Part shown: in pieces, positions 8,751-22,803 of the stretch
How the letters are laid out: each line of letters begins with the position of its first letter
How positions within the stretch are numbered: the first letter of the stretch is position 1
Source of the DNA: a virus
Direction: 5' to 3' (one strand)
Virus record (IMG/VR): IMGVR_UViG_3300000928_000178
Location: 1-28,944 of that record
Length of the DNA: 28,944 nt
Position numbers and translations under genes: made by a program
Notes under the pieces: generated by a model
What the model was told of the DNA's origin: nothing
Seen by the model: the letters and a program-made list of their open reading frames with translations, nothing else
The model's database searches: none

Positions 8751-8960
8751 ATGAGTAAGATTAGATTTGATGGAGCTGAAACTCCAGTAATGTTACCAAC
8801 CAAAGAAGATGTTGTAACACAAGCACCAGTTGGTATCTTAAAAGATATTATAATAGATCAAGCCACTGTTGCAACTGGACATTTGCTACAATATAATGCA
8901 AGTGCAACACCAGACCCAGTATGGGAAAATAGTAATGTTATAGATGGTGGAAATTACTAA
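8751..8960 (+). CDS. Small hypothetical virion protein carrying a fibre-type motif
   Basis: A 69-aa ORF with an AAGGA RBS. GHLLQYNASATPDPVWEN resembles the GQVLxWDGxxWxP motif that is repeated in the giant fibre protein. Confidence 0.5.
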   Translation: MSKIRFDGAETPVMLPTKEDVVTQAPVGILKDIIIDQATVATGHLLQYNASATPDPVWENSNVIDGGNY

Positions 8961-9036
8961 CAACATGTAGTCAAGTTAGGTGTCTTAGACGCTCAACAAG
9001 GGCTATATATAGCGTCAAAATAACAAGGATAACCAA

Positions 9037-9528
9037 ATGCCCCAAACCCAACAAAACACAAAAATTCTACGCCTTAAAAGCAGTTTTAACAGAGCACTAA
9101 CATTAGACAAATACAAGCAGTTAGTTCACTTTGTAATAGTAAAAAAATTAAAAGCACACTGTCCAGGAGACTATGTTTGTTACAGATTCTATACAAATTG
9201 TGTAGGTGTTGCAACAAGTGAACCAGATATAAATGAATGGCTCTCACTTCACGACTTAGGTAGTAGACCAGTAATTACTAAAAAACTTAATACTTCAGGC
9301 AAAGTGTTAGCACAAGCAAAACAAAATGGATTTACCAGTCTTGGGTTTGCTGACGGTATAATGCAAAGCAGTGAAAATTTACAAGATGAAATTATGCGTT
9401 TATTAGACAGCGGTCAAACACTTACAAATATTGCTAACAATTTAGGTTGCACAACTGCAAACATATATTACCACAGAAAGAGATACAAAGAACGTATGAA
9501 CAAGCAATTAGAGGTTGACAAAACCTAG
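9037..9528 (+). CDS. DNA-binding protein with a C-terminal Hin/resolvase-type helix-turn-helix
   Basis: A 163-aa ORF. EIMRLLDSGQTLTNIANNLGCTTANIYYHRKRY looks like an HTH_7-type motif. I see no serine-recombinase catalytic domain in the N-terminal part. Confidence 0.6.
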   Translation: MPQTQQNTKILRLKSSFNRALTLDKYKQLVHFVIVKKLKAHCPGDYVCYRFYTNCVGVATSEPDINEWLSLHDLGSRPVITKKLNTSGKVLAQAKQNGFTSLGFADGIMQSSENLQDEIMRLLDSGQTLTNIANNLGCTTANIYYHRKRYKERMNKQLEVDKT

Positions 9529-9544
9529 TTTATACTGTATAAAT
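9515..9544 (+). promoter_or_regulatory. Promoter P0 (sigma70-like)
   Basis: TTGACA (9515-9520), 17 nt, then TATAAA (9538-9543), or 18 nt to ATAAAT with a TG extension. It shares the GGTTGACAA...ACTGTATA context with P4 and P5. The -35 lies inside the 3' end of the HTH gene. The perfect palindrome TTTATAC-T-GTATAAA (9529-9543) overlaps the -10. Confidence 0.6.
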
Positions 9545-9549
9545 ATATA

Positions 9550-9753
9550 TAGTAAGTTAAAAAATAATCAATGATTACTCAGACATTCTCCAAATAATGT
9601 TCAATTTTAGCTTACAGTTGTATAAGGGTGATACTAGGATTCATTGCCTAGCTCCAACAAAATGTAACTGGAAACAGTGCCATATATATTAAAGCAGAAC
9701 TGCCCAATACTTTATACAATGATTCTAAAAAGGCGTCGAAAGGCGTCTTTTTT
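9550..9753 (+). ncRNA. Candidate small RNA or attenuated leader (P0 to terminator)
   Basis: An interval of about 200 nt bracketed by promoter P0 and an intrinsic terminator. It has no ORF of 60 aa or more. The only notable ORF is 31 aa (9597-9692) with no Shine-Dalgarno. An internal hairpin is CTAGG-ATTCATTG-CCTAG (9634-9651). Confidence 0.35.
9727..9753 (+). terminator. Intrinsic terminator with a GAAA tetraloop
   Basis: AAAAAGGCGUC-GAAA-GGCGUCUUUUUU. The 6-bp core has 4 Watson-Crick and 2 G-U pairs, is extended by A-U pairs, and is followed by a T6 tract. The same bases also read as a direct repeat AGGCGTC-GAA-AGGCGTC. Confidence 0.55.
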
Positions 9754-9754
9754 C

Positions 9755-9783
9755 TTGACAAATGCACCATTTTGTGCTATAAT
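9755..9783 (+). promoter_or_regulatory. Promoter P1 (perfect sigma70 consensus, extended -10)
   Basis: TTGACA (9755-9760), 17 nt, TGcTATAAT (TATAAT at 9778-9783). The spacer contains AAATG-CAC-CATTT. Confidence 0.8.
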
Positions 9784-9835
9784 GATAAATACATTAAGTA
9801 AAAGAATAAACTTTTACAATCTATAGGAGAAGACA

Positions 9836-10216
9836 GTGAGATATTATATTCTAAATTACACAAACGAAACTAGTGCTACGCACGGTAATGACTATTACCA
9901 TGTAAACATATGTAATGAAAACTTAGAAGAGTTTTGGACATATGTATATCCCTTTCAAAAAAACGGCAAGAAAATACACAATGCACAAACTTGGCTTAAT
10001 ATACTACAATGCAAAGAAGGTGTTGTAATAAGTAACCTAAAGTTATTGCCTAATAAGAAACATCTTATTAATGCCGACAGTATAAGACAAGCAAAACCGG
10101 AACAGTTATTTCCTACAAAGCAAGAAATGTATGATCATATAGGTGATTTAATTCACAAACGTGATGTTGAAAAACTTGAAAAACATTTTGATAATGATAT
10201 GTTTGATATAAGTTGA
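9836..10216 (+). CDS. Early hypothetical protein
   Basis: A 126-aa ORF with a GTG start 5 nt after AGGAGA, downstream of P1. I recognise no motif. Its TGA stop lies inside the -35 hexamer of P2. Confidence 0.7.
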   Translation: MRYYILNYTNETSATHGNDYYHVNICNENLEEFWTYVYPFQKNGKKIHNAQTWLNILQCKEGVVISNLKLLPNKKHLINADSIRQAKPEQLFPTKQEMYDHIGDLIHKRDVEKLEKHFDNDMFDIS

Positions 10217-10241
10217 CAAAAACAAATAACTATATTATAAT
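10213..10241 (+). promoter_or_regulatory. Promoter P2 (perfect sigma70 hexamers)
   Basis: TTGACA (10213-10218), 17 nt, TATAAT (10236-10241). Confidence 0.8.
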
Positions 10242-10247
10242 ACTAAC

Positions 10248-10620
10248 ATTGGCTAATACAAAACTAACACAGAACCCTTACATACCCTCCTTGACAACAC
10301 AGCATTGAAGGCTAGAGAAACACTAGTTTAGAAACTTGCTTGAGGGGTTGCGTTTTCCAACTAATGAAAACTGACTAGACATATGAATGCAACTGTAGGC
10401 AGAAAGCATTCTTAAAAATCACTGGTGTATGGTAAGCAGGAACGAGCCAAATGTCTTATAGTCTCTAAAAACACCCTAGGCTGTAGTAGCCTACTTATGA
10501 CTGAAGAGATCTAATAAGTTATATTATATAATAACAAATAAACCACATATAAATGTTTAATGTTCCACTTAAGAAGAGAAAAAAAATAAACAGAAAAAAC
10601 TCTTTAGAGTTTTGATGTTT
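10248..10620 (+). ncRNA. Candidate structured leader / ncRNA downstream of P2
   Basis: About 420 nt lie between P2 and the next start codon (10666), and the longest + strand ORF there is 20 codons. The 5' 270 nt look more GC-rich than the flanks and contain hairpins GAATGC-15 nt-GCATTC (10385-10411) and TAGGCT-GTAGT-AGCCTA (10477-10493). A possible helix pairs AACCCTT (10273-10279) with AGGGGTT (10343-10349). A weak hairpin plus T-run sits at 10596-10621. Confidence 0.3.
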
Positions 10621-14439: not shown

Positions 14440-17400
14440 ATGAGCACATATACAATATTGCCTAAAGATGATAGCAACTTAGGCGTAACGGTTATCAGTG
14501 ATGACCAGAGTCAAGTAATAGTAGTTGACTCAGCAACACAACAAGTAACAGTAACAGAGAATGTAATTAGCGTAAGCGTTACACCTGGTCTTATTGGCAG
14601 TTTAACTGTTGATAGTGTTAATGGTAAAACAGGCTTAGTTGTTTTAAACGCTGATGACATTAGTGAAACAGCAGACCCTGCCGGAAACAAATATTACACA
14701 GCCGCAAGAGATACTGCACAATTCAATATTGATTTAGCATTAAAGACCACAGACGATTTAACTGAAGGTTCAACTAACGAATACTACACAGACGCTAAAG
14801 CCAGAGCCGCACTAACAGGTGCAGGCGATATTAACTACAATCAAACTACAGGTGTTATATCATTTGATAGTTCAAGTTTAGTTACAAGTGTAAACGGACA
14901 AGATGGTGCCGTTGTATTAAGCACAACAAACATTGCAGAAGGAACTAACGCATACTGGACACAGGTTCGATTTGACAACGCATTAAGCAGTTCGTCTACA
15001 GATGAATTACTTGAAGGAAGCACAAACCTTTATTACACACCAGGCAGAGTTCAACAGGTTATTACTGCAAACACAGAACAATTTATTAAAGCTGATTCAA
15101 CAGAAACACTCACAAACAAATCAGGCAACAACTCAATGTTTGCTAATGATTCAGATTACCTTACTAGTATTAATGGAAGAATTGGCCCATCAGCTACAAT
15201 GGACACAGATGATTTACAAGAGCCAGCAGTTGGTGCCACAAACAAATACTTTACAGAGGCAAGATCAAGAGCGTCAATTAGTGTAACAGACACTGGTGGA
15301 GATGGAAGTTTAAGTTATAACAACACTACAGGTGTTCTTACTTTTACAGGCCCAGCACCAAGTGATGTTAGAGTATTAGTAAGTGCCGTTGATGCAGGTG
15401 GAGATGGAAGCTTTGGTTACAATCAAAGCACAGGTGAATTTACATACACAGGACCAACACCCACTGAAGTTCGTTCACACTTTACAGTAAATGATTTAGG
15501 CGGTGACGGAAGCATCACGTATGATAATACTACAGGTGTAATTGATTACACTGGACCAAACCAAGCTGAAGTTAGAGCACACATTACTAAAGTCTTTGTA
15601 GATGCATTAGGCATTCAAGCTACAAGTGTAGACGCAGACAGTGTTGCATTAGGCACAGATACAACAGGTGATTATGTTAAAACAATAGCAGGAACACCAA
15701 ACAAAATTGAAGTAAGCGGAAGTGGAACAGAAGGTAGACCAGTTACATTAACATTACCAAGCACAGTTCAGATTGCACAAGATCTAACTGTAGGCGGAAA
15801 CTTAACTGTAAGCGGTGACTTAACTTACCTAAACACTACAGACTTACAAATACAAGATAATCTATTTGAACTTAACAGTGGCTTAACAGGCACTCCAGTT
15901 AATGATAGTGGAATGCTTATACAAAGAGGCAATCAAACTAATCAAATCTTTATGTGGGACGAAAGTGTAGACAAGTTTACATTGGGTGCGACAGCAAGTG
16001 AAGATGGCGCTAGAGGAAACATCAACGTTACAGTTGGAACATTGGTTGCAGACATTGAAGGTAATTTAACTGGTGATGTTACAGGTAATGTTACAGGTAA
16101 CGTAACAGGCAATACAACAGGAGTTCACACAGGCGCAGTAACCGGAGATGTAACTGGAGATATAACTTCAACTGGCACATCAACATTTACAACAGCTGAT
16201 ATTAACGGTGGAAACATTGATGGCACTATAATTGGTGCAGTAACAACAGCCGCAGGATCATTTACAACAGTAAACGCAAGTGGAGCCATTACAGGTAACT
16301 TAACTGGTAATAGTGCAGGACAACATACAGGTTCTGTAGTGGGAACAAGTGTAAGTGCAAGTGTTGGATTTACAGGTGATGTTCAAGGTGATACAAGCGG
16401 AACACATACAGGTCCTGTAAGTGGTAATGTTTCAGGTAACTTAACAGGTAATGTAACAGGTGACTTAGTAGGTAATACTTCAGGTGGAACACACACTGGA
16501 CCAGTAACCGGAGATGTAACAGGTAACTTAGCAGGTGATTCAACAGGAACACACACTGGTCAAGTTAACGGAACAACTGTTACTGCAAGTGGCGGATTCA
16601 CAGGCACATTAGTAGGTAATGTTACAGGCAATGTTCAAGGTAATGTCCAAGGTGATTTAACTGGTGATGTTACAGGTAAAATAACTTCAACAGGCACAGG
16701 CTCACAAAAGAGTGTATTCACAGAAGTTGATATTAATGGTGGCACAATAGACGGCACACCAATTGGCGGCAATGTAGCAAGCACAGGTGAATTTACAACT
16801 GTATCAACCACAGGTTCAATCACTGCCAACACAGGCTTTGTTGGAGACTTAACAGGTGATGTTACAGGTAATACAACAGGACATCATTTTGGTGATGTGA
16901 CAGGAAACTTATCTGGATCAGTTACTGGTAATGTTCAAGGTAACACAGAAGGTGATTTAACAGGTGATGTTTATGCAGGCAACGGCACAAGTAAAATACT
17001 TGAAAATGGCACCAATGGAACTGATGCAGTATTTACAGGTAATGTAACTGGAAATGTTACAGGAACTGTTTCAACCTTATCAAATCACGACACAGGCGAT
17101 TTAGCAGAAGGTTCAAATCAATATTATACAGATGCCAAAGTATTAACTAAGATTAACAACACAAGCATTGATGGTTTAAGTGATGTTGACACCAGCACAA
17201 CTGCACCAACAACTGCACAAGTATTAGAATGGGATGGAACTAATTGGGTCCCAGGTGATTCAGGTATTGGTGATGTTACACAAACAGGAACACAAACACT
17301 ATCAAACAAAACATTATTAGGTCAAAAGGTTGATTATATTGGGCCAATAAATGTTGGTGACCCAGTTACAATAAATAAAATTAGATCTAATGCAGGTAGC

Positions 17401-20400
17401 ACTGGGCAAATTAACCCAAGCAATTATGGCGGGCAATTAGCTGCAACAAACGCCACTGCTACAATTAATTCAGACAGATTTCAGTTTAATAATATTCCAA
17501 GTGGAGGAAACCCAACTTCATATCCAGGATATGGATGGTCAACTCAATTAGCTGCACGAGAAGGTTATACAGGTTCAAATCCATGGCTTGGTAAAGCAAT
17601 TGTTGACATATCATTAACCAGGGAACCAATTAGTGGACTAAGCACTACTGAATTCTTAAGTGCTAAAGCTCTTTATGGAGGTGGCTTTTCAACTAAAACA
17701 ATTAACAAGACTGTAGCTCCCAACACAGGCAGCTACTATAATATCAGACCAAAATCAACTGATGGACATTTAAGTGAGTTAACTTTAACTGGATCATCAG
17801 CATATACTAATGCATTATCTCCACAAAGTGATAGCAATTGGCAATACAACAGATTAAAAAGCACAACCAATGGAATTACATTAGCAAACTTAGATATAGA
17901 TGGTAGTGCAATATCATTTTATGGCAATGAATATAGGCTTCCAAACACAGACGGAACAAGTGGTCAAGTATTATACACAGATGGTAACGGTAATATAAGT
18001 TGGACTGCAGCAGTTGGAACAGTTTCAAGTGTTAACGGAGAAGTTGGCACAGTTGTATTAAACACTGACCATGTTGATGAAGACGCTAACCCTGTAAACA
18101 AATATTTCACAGATGCTAGAGTAGAAAGTAAATTAAACATTACCAACCTAGATGAGATACAAGATGTTGTTTATACATCTGCACCACAGGCTGGTGAAGT
18201 GTTGCTATGGGATAGCACTGTTTTTCCAAACGGCGCATGGAGACCAAACACAGTATCAGGAACAGGAACTGTAACAGGTATTACAGCAGGTGATCATTTA
18301 GCTGTTGGAGGTGGCGGAACATCTATTATTACTACCGCTGGAACATTAAATGTAGAAACAGGTGGCGCAGGTGGAATTGTAACAACAGATGGATTCAACA
18401 GATTACCACCCTTAAACGCAAGTCAATTATTAGATCTGCCTGACTCAGGTGTGCAAAGTATTACAGCTTCAACTGGTTTAACAGGTGGAACAATCACTGG
18501 CACTGGAACAATTGCAGTAGATGTAGGTCAGACAGCAGGCAAGATTGTTCAGATAGATGGCAATGGTAAATTACCAAGTGTAGACGGTTCACAGTTAACA
18601 AACTTACCACCAACTGGTGTGCAAAGTGTTACAGCCGGAACAGGTTTATATACAATAGGTAATCAACCTATTACAAACACTGGAACATTATATGTTGATG
18701 TTGGAACAACCGCAAACAGAATTGTTCAATTAGACTCTAATGCAAAGCTACCAGCAGTAGATGGTTCACAGTTAACAAACTTACCAGCTAGTGCAGCACA
18801 AACACTAACGTTTAGTTCACCAGACTTATCACTATCAGGCGGAGGCGGCACTGTTGACTTATCAACGTTAACACCAAGCTCAATGGCGTGGAGTTCAATT
18901 ACAAGCACACCAACTACTATTAGTGGATACGGAATTACAGACGCATTTGATGGAGCATACAGCTCATTAAGTGGACTACCAACATTGTTCAGTGGTGCAT
19001 ATGCAGACCTAAGTGGAAAACCAACATTATCTACAGTAGCAGGAACAGGTGATTACAGTGATCTATTAAACAAGCCAACATTATTTGATGGAGCATTTAG
19101 TAGTTTAACTGGAACACCAACTACAATTAGTGGATACGGAATTACAGATGGTGTTACATTAACTGGAACAGAAACACTAACAAACAAAACAATACCAGCT
19201 TTTACTGGTAATGAAATCAAATACACAGCCAACAGTGGAAGTGGTAATAACTTCCAGGCACTAAAGATTGTTAATGAATATGATTCGACTTTAACACCAG
19301 ACTATTCAAATTTTAATGGTGCATTCCAAATACAAAACTATACACAAGCTAGTTCAGACTGGATTAATGTTTTACAATTCCAAACACCAAACAAGAAGAA
19401 CATGTTTAGGCTTCACATTGACAACTCAGATTTTGTAGCCAATGATGGAAATATAACTGACAAAAACTTTACAGCTGGTAATTTTTTAACTGGCAAAACA
19501 TATAAAATTGTTAGTGTTGGAACCACAGACTTTACAACTATTGGTTCAGCCAATAACAATGTTAACACATTATTTGTAGCCACAGGTGCAGGTAGTGGAA
19601 CAGGAACAGCTGATGCTTGGGACACTGGTTCACACTATTCAACATTTAGTATGAAAGGTGCAGACAACATTGGCTTTGTAAAAGCAAGTGACGGATTTGT
19701 TATTGGTGTTAAATATAAGATCTTTACTGTTGGAACCACAGACTTTACAGCAGTTGGTTCAGCAGACAACAATGTAGGCACAGAATTTGTTTGTTCTACA
19801 GCAGGTTCAAGTGGAACAGGTATAGCAGTTGATCAAAGACCTTTTAAAGGACAGAAAAACAGATTTAGTTCTTACACTGCTCATCAAAGCCCAAATACAT
19901 GGCCAACTAATTTAGATTTTGACGCTAACACTATCAGCTTCCATAGTGAATATGTATTCCCAACCAGTGACGGTAGCAGTGGACAAATATTAACAACAGA
20001 TGGTGCAGGACAATTAAGTTTTACAAGCCCAAGTGGATCTGGAACTGTAACAAGTGTAGATAGTGGAACAGGATTAACAGGTGGACCAATAACAGGTTCA
20101 GGAACATTAAATGTTGATGTTGGAACAACTGCAAACAAGATAGTTCAATTAGATTCAAATGCAAAACTACCAGCAGTAGACGGAAGTAACTTAACAAACT
20201 TACCAAGTGGCGCTGCTCAAACACTTAGCTTTACGAGTCCTAACTTAACAATAAGTGGAAGTTCAAGCACAGTAGACCTAAGTGCATTAAGCACAACATC
20301 ATTGGCATGGAGTGCCTTAACAGCAACACCAACTACGATTGCAGGCTATGGAATAACAGATGCATTTGATGGCAATTATAATAATTTAACAAACAAACCA

Positions 20401-22803
20401 ACATTGTTTAGTGGTGCATATGCAGACCTAACAGGTAAGCCAACAATACCAACAAACAACAATCAATTAACAAATGGTGCAGGTTACATTAGTAGTGTTC
20501 CAGCACAATCGTTTGCTAGTTTAACAGGTAAACCAACTACAATAAGTGGATATGGAATTACAGATGCATTTGATGGAGCTTATAGTTCATTAAGTGGACT
20601 ACCAACTATTCCAACAAACAACAATCAATTGACAAATGGTGCAGGTTATTTAACTTCTGTTCCAGCTCAATCATTTAGTAGTTTAACAGGTAAGCCAACT
20701 ACTATTAGTGGATATGGAATTACAGATGCATTTGATGGAGCTTATAGTTCATTAAGTGGACTACCAACATTGTATGATAATGCAGCTGTAGACACACACT
20801 TAAACACATCAACTGCAGCAACTAACGAAGTATTAAGTTGGAATGGAACTGATTATGATTGGGTTGCACAAACAGGTGGTGGAGGTGGATCAACCACAAT
20901 CAACAACAATGCTGACAACAGAATTATTACAGGTTCAAATACTGCAAACACGTTAAATGGTCAAGGTGATTTAACTTATGATGGTGATCATTTATTAATA
21001 GAAGGAACTGCAAGTGCACCAGATGATGCTGTTGTTAATATTAAAACAGACAATAGTTTATGGAGCAAACCACAAATTACATTAGAAGACAGCAGCGGTA
21101 AAGCAGTTGCCCTACTTGGACAAAATGATCCAAATTTAGATTTAGATAAACTTGTGTTTATGATGGACCCAGAAGGTAATCATAACAAGACCGGTGCTTA
21201 CACAGGTGATTACGGATTCTACTACACCAAAGACTGGGCAAACCTTGCAGGTGGCGGTGATGTTATAATGCGTAATAGAATATTTGGTGCTGAAGATCAC
21301 TTTACTACAAGTGTATTTGGTGACTATAGTTCAGCAGTAAACGGCGTGTATCAATACAGACCTTTTCAATTAAACACTCAAAAGTTTAAAGTTTTGGTTA
21401 GTGATAGTAGTAATAACATATCTGAAGCATTTAGAGTTGAAGAGGGAGTCGTTAGATTCTTTGAAGAATATATGTTCCCAACATTAGATGGTAGTGCTGG
21501 CCAAGTATTAACCACAAATGGTGTTGGACAATTAAGTTTTGAAACTCCTGGAGTCACACAAACTGGATCAGAAACACTAACAAACAAAACATTAACTTCA
21601 CCAATACTAGGTGGAACAACTACAACTGCAAGTGGCAATCTTGTATTAGATCCTGCCACAAATATATTAGAAGTTAAAGGTTCAGGTTCTACAGACGGTC
21701 AAATTCAACTTAACTGTAGTGCTAACACTCACGGACAAACAATTAAAGCACAACCACACAGTGCAAATGTAACCAACACAATGCTATTACCAACTGGTGC
21801 TAACAGCACATTGGTAAGTGAGGCAACAGTAGATGGCTTAGTAGACACACATTTAAATACATCAACTGCAACAACTAACCAAGTGTTAAGTTGGGATGGA
21901 ACAGACTATGACTGGGTAACAAACAGTGGTGGCGGTAGTTCAACACTAAGTGGATTAACTGATGTTGATATTACAAGTGTTCAGAACAATGATCTACTTA
22001 TGTATAACAGCACTGCAGGTGAATGGCAGAACACTAATTTAGGCGTAAGTGTTACACCAACACTAACTGGTGATTCATCAACTTCATCAGCTTTGACTTA
22101 TGTGTTAACTGTTAGCAACCATGCAACATATGATGACCCTGCATACTTTGTAGAAGTTTACACAGGAACAACTAAAGTTGTTGACAATGATGATGTAATA
22201 GATAACTTAGATGGAACATTATCATTTACAGCACCAGCAGCAGGCACACACGAAATTAGAGTTAGATGTCAAGACTTTGGTGACTTACAATCAGAGATAG
22301 CAACCAAGGCATTAACAACTGCAGCATTTGGTGGCACATACCGTTATTGGCGTGTTGCTAACTTTACCGGTTCACCAACTAACATGGGTATTAAAAATAT
22401 TAGATTCTACAGTGGGACAGGGCAAACTGGCACAGCATATCCAACTAACATGACCAGCGGCACAGCACCAACACCGTTTGTTGCTACTGCAAGTTATTAT
22501 TATGCACCAGCAGGTGAAACATATGCACCTTGGAAAGCATTTGATAGTAACAGCTCACAAACTTGGGTTTGGTATTTGGGACACAGTGGAACACAATTAG
22601 CTTCTGACTGGGTCCAGATTGATCTAGGAAGTGCTACAAGCATTAGCAGTTTAACTGTTGGTGCATGGTATAGTAACCAACCAAGTTCATTTCAAATACT
22701 TGCATCTAGCACTGGAGCGTTTAGTGGTGAAGAAACTACAATTGCAACAGTAACAACTACTGGTAACAGTAGTGATGTTGGTAACATATATAATATAGGA
22801 TAA
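14440..22803 (+). CDS. Giant mosaic tail fibre / receptor-binding protein (2,787 aa)
   Basis: A single uninterrupted ORF containing many phage-fibre motifs: EGSTNxYYT repeats, DINGGxIDGTxIG, GTxTLTNKT, YxFPxxDGSxGQxLxTDGxGxLSF, KLPAxDGSxLTNLP, ISGYGITDAFDG and YxDLxGKPT. It ends in a discoidin-like domain. Confidence 0.85.
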   Translation: MSTYTILPKDDSNLGVTVISDDQSQVIVVDSATQQVTVTENVISVSVTPGLIGSLTVDSVNGKTGLVVLNADDISETADPAGNKYYTAARDTAQFNIDLALKTTDDLTEGSTNEYYTDAKARAALTGAGDINYNQTTGVISFDSSSLVTSVNGQDGAVVLSTTNIAEGTNAYWTQVRFDNALSSSSTDELLEGSTNLYYTPGRVQQVITANTEQFIKADSTETLTNKSGNNSMFANDSDYLTSINGRIGPSATMDTDDLQEPAVGATNKYFTEARSRASISVTDTGGDGSLSYNNTTGVLTFTGPAPSDVRVLVSAVDAGGDGSFGYNQSTGEFTYTGPTPTEVRSHFTVNDLGGDGSITYDNTTGVIDYTGPNQAEVRAHITKVFVDALGIQATSVDADSVALGTDTTGDYVKTIAGTPNKIEVSGSGTEGRPVTLTLPSTVQIAQDLTVGGNLTVSGDLTYLNTTDLQIQDNLFELNSGLTGTPVNDSGMLIQRGNQTNQIFMWDESVDKFTLGATASEDGARGNINVTVGTLVADIEGNLTGDVTGNVTGNVTGNTTGVHTGAVTGDVTGDITSTGTSTFTTADINGGNIDGTIIGAVTTAAGSFTTVNASGAITGNLTGNSAGQHTGSVVGTSVSASVGFTGDVQGDTSGTHTGPVSGNVSGNLTGNVTGDLVGNTSGGTHTGPVTGDVTGNLAGDSTGTHTGQVNGTTVTASGGFTGTLVGNVTGNVQGNVQGDLTGDVTGKITSTGTGSQKSVFTEVDINGGTIDGTPIGGNVASTGEFTTVSTTGSITANTGFVGDLTGDVTGNTTGHHFGDVTGNLSGSVTGNVQGNTEGDLTGDVYAGNGTSKILENGTNGTDAVFTGNVTGNVTGTVSTLSNHDTGDLAEGSNQYYTDAKVLTKINNTSIDGLSDVDTSTTAPTTAQVLEWDGTNWVPGDSGIGDVTQTGTQTLSNKTLLGQKVDYIGPINVGDPVTINKIRSNAGSTGQINPSNYGGQLAATNATATINSDRFQFNNIPSGGNPTSYPGYGWSTQLAAREGYTGSNPWLGKAIVDISLTREPISGLSTTEFLSAKALYGGGFSTKTINKTVAPNTGSYYNIRPKSTDGHLSELTLTGSSAYTNALSPQSDSNWQYNRLKSTTNGITLANLDIDGSAISFYGNEYRLPNTDGTSGQVLYTDGNGNISWTAAVGTVSSVNGEVGTVVLNTDHVDEDANPVNKYFTDARVESKLNITNLDEIQDVVYTSAPQAGEVLLWDSTVFPNGAWRPNTVSGTGTVTGITAGDHLAVGGGGTSIITTAGTLNVETGGAGGIVTTDGFNRLPPLNASQLLDLPDSGVQSITASTGLTGGTITGTGTIAVDVGQTAGKIVQIDGNGKLPSVDGSQLTNLPPTGVQSVTAGTGLYTIGNQPITNTGTLYVDVGTTANRIVQLDSNAKLPAVDGSQLTNLPASAAQTLTFSSPDLSLSGGGGTVDLSTLTPSSMAWSSITSTPTTISGYGITDAFDGAYSSLSGLPTLFSGAYADLSGKPTLSTVAGTGDYSDLLNKPTLFDGAFSSLTGTPTTISGYGITDGVTLTGTETLTNKTIPAFTGNEIKYTANSGSGNNFQALKIVNEYDSTLTPDYSNFNGAFQIQNYTQASSDWINVLQFQTPNKKNMFRLHIDNSDFVANDGNITDKNFTAGNFLTGKTYKIVSVGTTDFTTIGSANNNVNTLFVATGAGSGTGTADAWDTGSHYSTFSMKGADNIGFVKASDGFVIGVKYKIFTVGTTDFTAVGSADNNVGTEFVCSTAGSSGTGIAVDQRPFKGQKNRFSSYTAHQSPNTWPTNLDFDANTISFHSEYVFPTSDGSSGQILTTDGAGQLSFTSPSGSGTVTSVDSGTGLTGGPITGSGTLNVDVGTTANKIVQLDSNAKLPAVDGSNLTNLPSGAAQTLSFTSPNLTISGSSSTVDLSALSTTSLAWSALTATPTTIAGYGITDAFDGNYNNLTNKPTLFSGAYADLTGKPTIPTNNNQLTNGAGYISSVPAQSFASLTGKPTTISGYGITDAFDGAYSSLSGLPTIPTNNNQLTNGAGYLTSVPAQSFSSLTGKPTTISGYGITDAFDGAYSSLSGLPTLYDNAAVDTHLNTSTAATNEVLSWNGTDYDWVAQTGGGGGSTTINNNADNRIITGSNTANTLNGQGDLTYDGDHLLIEGTASAPDDAVVNIKTDNSLWSKPQITLEDSSGKAVALLGQNDPNLDLDKLVFMMDPEGNHNKTGAYTGDYGFYYTKDWANLAGGGDVIMRNRIFGAEDHFTTSVFGDYSSAVNGVYQYRPFQLNTQKFKVLVSDSSNNISEAFRVEEGVVRFFEEYMFPTLDGSAGQVLTTNGVGQLSFETPGVTQTGSETLTNKTLTSPILGGTTTTASGNLVLDPATNILEVKGSGSTDGQIQLNCSANTHGQTIKAQPHSANVTNTMLLPTGANSTLVSEATVDGLVDTHLNTSTATTNQVLSWDGTDYDWVTNSGGGSSTLSGLTDVDITSVQNNDLLMYNSTAGEWQNTNLGVSVTPTLTGDSSTSSALTYVLTVSNHATYDDPAYFVEVYTGTTKVVDNDDVIDNLDGTLSFTAPAAGTHEIRVRCQDFGDLQSEIATKALTTAAFGGTYRYWRVANFTGSPTNMGIKNIRFYSGTGQTGTAYPTNMTSGTAPTPFVATASYYYAPAGETYAPWKAFDSNSSQTWVWYLGHSGTQLASDWVQIDLGSATSISSLTVGAWYSNQPSSFQILASSTGAFSGEETTIATVTTTGNSSDVGNIYNIG
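15283..15588 (+). repeat. Three tandem 102-nt (34-aa) coding repeats GGDGSxxYxxxTGxxxYTGPxxxEVRxH
   Basis: The GGDGS codons start at 15295, 15397 and 15499, spaced exactly 102 nt apart. Confidence 0.9.
16060..17070 (+). repeat. Arrays of 12-nt (tetrapeptide x-x-T/S-G) coding repeats
   Basis: The arrays lie at 16060-16176, 16294-16695, 16831-16980 and 17035-17070, for example GNLTGDVTGNVTGNVTGNTTGVHTGAVTGDVTGD. They are separated by DINGGxIDGTxIG...FTTV spacers. Confidence 0.9.
20440..20763 (+). repeat. Tandem duplication of 2 x 162 nt (54 aa) inside the fibre gene
   Basis: Units 20440-20601 and 20602-20763 differ at 3 of 54 residues. A 62-nt run is identical between them (20545-20606 and 20707-20768). 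Confidence 0.9.

Follow-up and report, generated by a model that had tools for sequence, protein, structure and literature searches.

A putative structured RNA gene next to a LuxR/GerE-type helix-turn-helix gene at the start of a phage early region

Gene context and boundaries of the transcription unit

The window of this study is the IMG/VR virus record IMGVR_UViG_3300000928_000178, a complete phage genome of 28,944 bp with terminal repeats, taken at its full length (positions 1 to 28,944). Its substantial open reading frames (ORFs) are all located on the plus strand and include, elsewhere in the genome, genes for terminase, portal, capsid protein, tape measure, and tail proteins; the tail genes resemble those of long-tailed phages. 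Here, we describe a putative structured non-coding RNA gene of approximately 205 nt at positions 9549-9752 of the plus strand, situated at the start of the early region directly after the last late gene. Its invariable upstream neighbor is a plus-strand gene (9037..9528, stop codon TAG at 9526-9528) for a 163-aa protein with a LuxR/GerE-type C-terminal helix-turn-helix (HTH) domain, and on its downstream side an intrinsic terminator is followed by the promoter of the next early gene. The original prediction, made from the letters of this genome, had singled out the interval as an orphan transcription unit giving rise to a discrete small RNA (sRNA), a micropeptide, or an attenuating leader. Comparisons reported below refer to 34 distinct full-length homologues from IMG/VR and marine metagenome contigs; L-numbers (e.g., L011 and L125) denote related loci or contigs.

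Direct reading confirmed the promoter upstream of the RNA gene, P0, at plus-strand positions 9515..9543, with the predicted -35 box TTGACA (9515-9520) within the last codons of the HTH ORF, a 17-nt spacer, and the -10 box TATAAA (9538-9543); the predicted start of transcription is at about 9549-9551. A consensus promoter scan missed P0 because TATAAA lacks a T at position 6. The combination of TTGACA and a 17-nt spacer with TATAAA, TATCAT, TATACT, or TATAAT was present in 34/34 homologues, and the -35 box was retained both where it lies inside the HTH ORF, as Val-Asp or Leu-Asp codons, and where it lies beyond the stop codon. Such motifs are compatible with a host RNA polymerase of the sigma-70 type. 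P0 opens a series of six TTGACA-N17 promoters within 9.5-12.9 kb.

In the window, the P0 -35 box is encoded by the Val-Asp codons at the C terminus of the HTH protein. According to the HTH alignment (window 9504-9528), the C termini LEVD, KVD, or RLD are encoded by this box, and the ORF of L002/L003 ends before it. Since the -35 box codes for C-terminal residues of the HTH protein, protein sequence and promoter constrain each other. The palindrome TTTATAC-T-GTATAAA, which had been noted as overlapping the -10 box, is present at 9529-9543, but its perfect form is not conserved, and relatives carry imperfect versions such as TTATAGTGTATAA. In its perfect form it is confined to the window phage, and a role as a conserved operator therefore seems unlikely. 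A mosaic breakpoint is located exactly at P0 (window 9508-9520) in L008-L011, e.g., at L011:2675-2695. These loci are 93% identical to the window from 9508 on, with about 99% identity in the RNA, and their HTH protein is only 34% identical to that of the window.

The intrinsic terminator (plus strand, 9727..9753) follows the all-plus-strand late gene block and is composed of a stem pairing 9727-9737 with 9742-9752, a GAAA loop, and a U-run at 9748-9753; its hairpin reads AAAAAGGCGUC-GAAA-GGCGUCUUUUU from 9727 to 9752, with the T-run extending to 9753. A terminator scan did not list it, as A/U pairs of the stem consume the T-run. Reading of the sequence and strand-specific folding nevertheless bore out a terminator at this place: the predicted energy was -12.8 kcal/mol (z -3.2) on the plus strand versus -3.7 kcal/mol (z +0.4) on the minus strand, and the hairpin folds on the plus strand and not on the minus strand because its stem contains two G.U pairs. 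All 34 of 34 members possess a stable hairpin (-9 to -19 kcal/mol) with a T-run, the sequence of which varies by lineage while pairing holds, and 11/11 stem pairs covary. Hairpin and U-run fit an intrinsic terminator, and therefore a discrete transcript is expected.

Promoter P1 of the next early gene (plus strand, 9755..9783) lies outside the RNA and abuts the terminator; its TTGACA-17-TATAAT matches the consensus at 12/12 positions, in line with the perfect consensus originally described. Every relative inspected has a consensus promoter after the terminator, abutting the T-run in the window and most others and situated at most about 60 nt away in the rest. Spacers of the early promoters harbor inverted repeats, GCACCATTTTGTGC in P1 of the window and TGACAAA...TTTGTCA in L007 and L025, the latter type repeating the -35 box in inverted orientation. 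The LuxR-type HTH protein, which would be made late, is a candidate binder of these spacer repeats.

Only one plus-strand ORF lies wholly within the unit, and the description of this ORF as 31 codons without a Shine-Dalgarno sequence (9597-9692) proved correct. It is reduced to 4 codons (MFKF) in L027, L107, and L110, frame-shifted after YKG in L017 and L113, and absent elsewhere; across the 34 members no conserved reading frame was found, as frame, length, and presence all vary. A recurring LQLYKG string results from the conservation of nucleotides in the helices P1 and P2 described below. Searches of Rfam 15 with the window and 10 diverse relatives returned no match at the gathering score or at E <= 0.05, and only chance-level matches up to E 10. 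Neither a tRNA nor a tmRNA was found.

Conservation, fold, and distribution of the RNA

Related loci were gathered by IMG/VR searches with the HTH protein and the downstream protein, by a DNA pattern derived from two conserved blocks, and by a profile of the HTH family in IMG/VR and metagenomes. Apart from the 34 full-length homologues, this yielded the divergent loci L125 and L114 and a short form (L077/L124). Overall, the RNA is conserved in at least 36 related, uncultured phages of marine origin. The RNA was found directly 3' of a LuxR/GerE-type HTH gene at every homologous locus with enough sequence, down to 25% protein identity, and the layout in the relatives consists of the HTH gene, a promoter located at the stop codon of this gene or shortly behind it, a stretch of 200-275 nt containing conserved blocks, a hairpin with T-run, and an early promoter. 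Because promoter, terminator, and intervening sequence are conserved in 34 distinct relatives, the unit is, judged by its conservation, more than a product of chance.

A covariance model, R1, was built from the window and a near-identical relative, its structure being derived from the window fold and visible compensatory changes. R1 detected the RNA beside the HTH gene in 34 distinct sequences with E values from 1e-62 to 5e-4. The core models R2 and R3 were used besides R1. R3, built from 32 members, picked up L125 and L114 at E 3e-5, L125 having been missed by R1, and gave no match in the chance pattern hits, in Pelagibacter phage HTVC026P, in phage DSL-LC06, or elsewhere in the window. Of the 39 pattern hits in viruses, about 20 were due to chance, and the lone RNA-pattern match in prokaryotes, in a Rikenellaceae metagenome-assembled genome, was rejected by the covariance models and is likewise regarded as a chance match.

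According to the fold model, the RNA is organized into two domains followed by the terminator, all on the plus strand. Domain 1 (9552..9615) is closed by helix P1 (9552-9562 with 9605-9615), which encloses a variable hairpin, a UUACUCA stretch, and the hairpin P1b (9582..9601). In P1b, a stem pairing 9582-9587 with 9596-9601 presents the loop CUCCAAAU (9588-9595), and the motif UUCUCC is located at 9586-9591. Domain 2 (9617..9720) is a four-way junction of about 100 nt formed by P2 to P5. P2 (9617-9627 with 9710-9720) is paired in 34/34 members and contains one invariant G.U; P3 (9634-9638 with 9647-9651) carries a UUCAU loop; P4 (9667-9670 with 9675-9678) is variable; and P5 (9694-9696 with 9701-9703) alternates between GCAG/CUGC and GCC/GGC. 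The invariant junction nucleotides of the plus strand are GGGU at 9626-9629, CUCC at 9652-9655, and CCC at 9703-9705.

Covariation supports these helices. Compensatory changes were detected at 8/11 pairs of P1, e.g., G-C to A-U in 10 sequences, and all 5/5 pairs of P3 covary, with up to four pair types (C-G, U-A, U-G, and others). In alignment A7, comprising 34 members, 95.3% of 1,455 cells were paired compared to 75.6% after shuffling, changes on both sides occurred at 38/50 pairs, and 0/500 shuffles reached any of the five measures applied. When the 3' partners were slid by 1-3 columns, pairing amounted to only 33-47%. As a separate line, MAFFT/RNAalifold recovered P1, P2, and the terminator with covariation, with the restriction that MAFFT by itself misaligned the inner helices. 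An unbiased scan of all column pairs returned the annotated helices as the top covarying pairs and no pseudoknot. The P2 helix of L125 has the rewritten sequence GGAUAUGCGG/CUGCAUAUCC, and its P1 helix reads GUAAGCAC/GUGCUUAC. MAFFT/RNAalifold, the free column scan, and the rewriting in L125 agree with the covariation obtained from the model-fitted alignments. Moreover, 132 cells held G.U compared to 11 holding A.C; this excess implies that the selected structure is that of the plus-strand RNA, not that of the opposite strand or of duplex DNA. A search for covariation among homologous intergenic regions, proposed together with the original prediction, has therefore been answered with supported helices and a fold that is conserved among relatives.

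The short form of about 85 nt (L077:3023-3107, identical to L124:1523-1607) accompanies an HTH protein 27% identical to that of the window. It retains the UUACUCA stretch, the GACAUUCUCCAAAUGUUC hairpin, and the terminator, and is devoid of the P1 helix and the P2-P5 domain. Upstream of it, only a weak promoter-like site, TTTATA-17-TATATT, was present.

Regarding the genomic neighborhood, Pfam GerE matches the 163-aa HTH protein at 2.7e-5, and comparison of the HTH family profile with PDB produced matches to the HTH domains of RhlR, SdiA, and NarL. Apart from GerE, the protein had no match to a Q family and none to PHROG. Within the 69-aa gene upstream of the HTH gene, a promoter-like TTGCAA-17-TATAAT (10/12) was observed at 8869-8897; it is kept in only 4/13 relatives, those with the same variant of the 69-aa gene, and could let members of this subgroup express the HTH protein early. 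A 2,787-aa ORF at 14440-22803 makes up 29% of the genome; it matched no PHROG family. The large terminase (TerL) and the portal of the phage are of classical, ordinary types. By portal, the closest cultured relatives are the Pelagibacter phages HTVC026P, 111P, 112P, and 202P (36-37% identity), whose host is the alphaproteobacterium Pelagibacter, and the homologue contigs stem from marine samples, TARA included. The RNA was not found in the cultured relatives HTVC026P and DSL-LC06, blastn with 9000-10400 and tblastn with the HTH protein against 50,697 phage records returned nothing, and neither the HTH family nor the RNA was present in representative genomes of 185,579 prokaryote species.

The UUCUCC motif and alternative readings of the RNA

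Conserved promoter and terminator, covarying helices, and strand-specific G.U pairs support the reading of the unit as a discrete small RNA. In our judgment, positions 9549-9752 very probably constitute a functional, independently transcribed structured RNA gene. Concerning its activity, the most suggestive element is UUCUCC, present outside the junction in 29/34 members. Its CUCC part has a mean predicted unpaired probability of 0.92 compared to a background of 0.41. The location of the motif differs between lineages: it is found in the P1b loop in the group of the window, in the terminator loop in the group of L005, L007, L029, and L055, and in the P4 region, near position 146, in L085. As it stays single-stranded while shifting between loops, it behaves like a sequence-specific pairing seed and not like a structural element. 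The complement of UUCUCC is GGAGAA, which many phage genes carry as their extended Shine-Dalgarno sequence (AGGAGAA sites); GGAGAA precedes 8/41 ORFs and GGAG 18/41. Loop-borne anti-Shine-Dalgarno motifs are established seeds of alphaproteobacterial sRNAs (cuckoo family, AbcR1/2) and of RNAIII (PMC4615179, PMC8844928). The short form L077/L124 has lost P2-P5 and kept the CUCC hairpin and the terminator.

The explanation that we prefer, and consider reasonably probable, is that of a structured RNA gene whose product is an early sRNA that acts in trans by means of an anti-Shine-Dalgarno seed. The RNA initiated at P0 would be made immediately on infection and end at the terminator. It would then act in trans through its loop-exposed UUCUCC, which resembles an anti-Shine-Dalgarno sequence and, by pairing with ribosome-binding sites of the GGAGAA type in mRNAs of the host or the phage, may lower their translation; the junction domain might contribute stability or bind a protein partner. 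That anti-Shine-Dalgarno pairing is the main mode of action of the RNA is a proposal that we make only tentatively.

Several observations weigh against this explanation. The exact UUCUCC is missing in 5/34 members, and no specific conserved target site was found; a 6-nt seed fits any strong Shine-Dalgarno sequence, including those of the phage itself. A junction of 100 nt with invariant nucleotides exceeds the needs of a base-pairing sRNA and hints at binding of a protein, a ligand, or RNA polymerase. The TATAAA -10 box of the window phage lacks the conserved final T, and the covariation alignments were fitted to a model derived from the window, which favors the structure. The transcript, its ends, and its abundance are predicted from sequence. 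Finally, the host is only presumed: SAR11 or another marine proteobacterium would fit the resemblance of the portal to those of Pelagibacter phages and the marine origin of the contigs.

A candidate target within the genome was considered and set aside. The P1/P2 joint (9610-9623) is complementary over 14 bp, including two G.U, to the leader of the next non-coding unit (10387-10400). This pairing is kept only in the window and the near-identical L011 and is therefore probably not functional. Duplex prediction of the whole RNA with that leader was not significant, since 9/200 shuffles were equal, and there was no exact complementarity longer than 11 nt elsewhere in the genome.

The invariant GGGU, CUCC, and CCC of the junction suggest an added protein- or RNA polymerase-binding function, and this leads to the main rival explanation, a protein-binding or decoy RNA. 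Here the junction would sequester or remodel RNA polymerase, a ribosome component, an RNA chaperone, a defense protein, or the HTH protein without any mRNA pairing. Such a role would account for junction nucleotides and a P2 G.U that are invariant in 34/34 members while the stems around them covary, for a domain exceeding the size needed by known base-pairing sRNAs, and for a linkage to the HTH gene that persists to 25% identity. However, L077/L124 dispense with the junction domain but not with the CUCC hairpin, no partner can be named, and the HTH protein is of the DNA-binding LuxR/NarL type, so that we rate this role as unlikely. It is tempting to speculate that the junction instead serves as a sensor or effector, either binding RNA polymerase or a phage factor in the manner of put RNA or Q, carrying polymerase from P0 past termination into the late genes, or forming an aptamer for a host metabolite or protein that is coupled to the anti-Shine-Dalgarno seed; we regard both versions as rather improbable.

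In phage lambda, gene Q is followed by the strong constitutive promoter pR', the non-coding 6S RNA of about 200 nt, and the strong terminator tR', and the late genes after tR' have no promoter of their own. By layout, the unit described here is similar, as the gene of a small DNA-binding regulator precedes a promoter overlapping its end and a terminated non-coding transcript of about 200 nt. A cis-acting leader of this lambda type, or one of the put/nut or riboswitch type, would permit conditional read-through into the early and then the late genes, which the location of all genes on one strand and the ability of the 3' half of the terminator to pair with the CCC of the junction in some lineages would allow. 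The likeness is limited in that the lambda leader is, to our knowledge, not a covariation-supported fold, and in that here a consensus promoter abuts the terminator. In all relatives inspected, a consensus promoter lies at most about 60 nt past the terminator, so that expression of the next gene does not require read-through. The alternative pairings (-9 to -11 kcal/mol versus -14.7 kcal/mol for the terminators) barely beat shuffles, are inconsistent between lineages, and are absent in the window, and the terminator stems are maintained by covariation and purifying selection. Moreover, the HTH protein matches GerE and no Q family, and no Rfam riboswitch was matched. We therefore consider a cis-acting leader quite improbable. 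For the attenuator that had been envisaged initially, the downstream promoter and the lack of a consistently conserved antiterminator pairing lead to the same unfavorable verdict.

Past the late gene block, this terminator is the first to be encountered, and the mosaic breakpoint of L008-L011 falls exactly at P0. These features might be taken to indicate that the region mainly serves the late operon as a structured 3' end, insulating it and stabilizing its RNA but lacking any further function, or that it works at the DNA level, for example as an origin, operator, or recombination site. A plain 3' end, however, needs neither a conserved promoter of its own nor a multi-helix fold of 200 nt, and the 132:11 ratio of G.U to A.C together with the compensatory changes points to selection on the plus-strand RNA and not on duplex DNA, which makes this explanation highly improbable. 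Translation of the 31-codon ORF as a micropeptide can be rejected for practical purposes: although ATG-initiated in the window and in a near-identical relative, the ORF is not conserved, being truncated, frame-shifted, or absent in relatives, it has no Shine-Dalgarno sequence, and its start codon is placed within the P1b stem.

Relation to known systems and implications

The closest parallels to the proposed trans-acting sRNA are the alphaproteobacterial sRNAs cuckoo/CcsR, AbcR1/2, and NfeR1 and the S. aureus RNAIII. Like the phage RNA, they possess their own promoter and intrinsic terminator and a C/U-rich, anti-Shine-Dalgarno-like loop motif that is conserved while stems covary (PMC4615179, PMC8844928). 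There is no sequence or covariance-model similarity to these RNAs, as no Rfam match was obtained, and the motif is UUCUCC here versus CCUCCUCCC, CUCCUCCC, or UCCC there. In addition, a single loop copy together with the CUCC of the junction contrasts with two to four repeated modules in these RNAs, and the RNA described here is encoded by a phage and bears a four-way junction of 100 nt.

Two phage systems are comparable in part. The promoter-early stem-loop (PeSL) cassettes of T4-type phages flank small ORFs (Arbiol et al. 2010, PMC2839356). The fusion of a stem-loop terminator to a strong sigma-70-like early promoter (9727-9783), its recurrence along the early region, and the recombination breakpoint at the promoter are reminiscent of these cassettes. 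At the promoter, the conserved GAGGTTGACAA resembles a recombination joint of the kind known from module shuffling by PeSL cassettes. In contrast to PeSL cassettes, the cassette found here holds an RNA gene, and the phage lineage is unrelated. Like the RNA described here, phi29 pRNA (RF00044) is structured and phage-encoded; it measures about 170-200 nt and is expressed from a strong early promoter at the border of the early region. No Rfam match was obtained even at E 10, however, and the phage has an ordinary TerL and portal and not a phi29-type packaging ATPase. As far as these comparisons reach, the RNA family has no homology to those described so far. Elements of this kind have precedents, whereas the fold, the lineage, and a possible second function are new.

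A function is known for only a few sRNAs of lytic phages, and our literature search turned up no sRNA described for pelagiphage-like marine viruses. The unit characterized here is a well-delimited RNA family of about 205 nt, absent from Rfam, with promoter, terminator, candidate seed, and covariation support, and is eligible as a new Rfam family. SAR11 are the most abundant marine bacteria. If the junction indeed acted as a sensor or effector, viruses related to those of SAR11 would possess a phage riboregulator of a new class. The RNA, whose promoter is apparently the first of the early ones, provides a concrete handle on how small marine phages reprogram their hosts.

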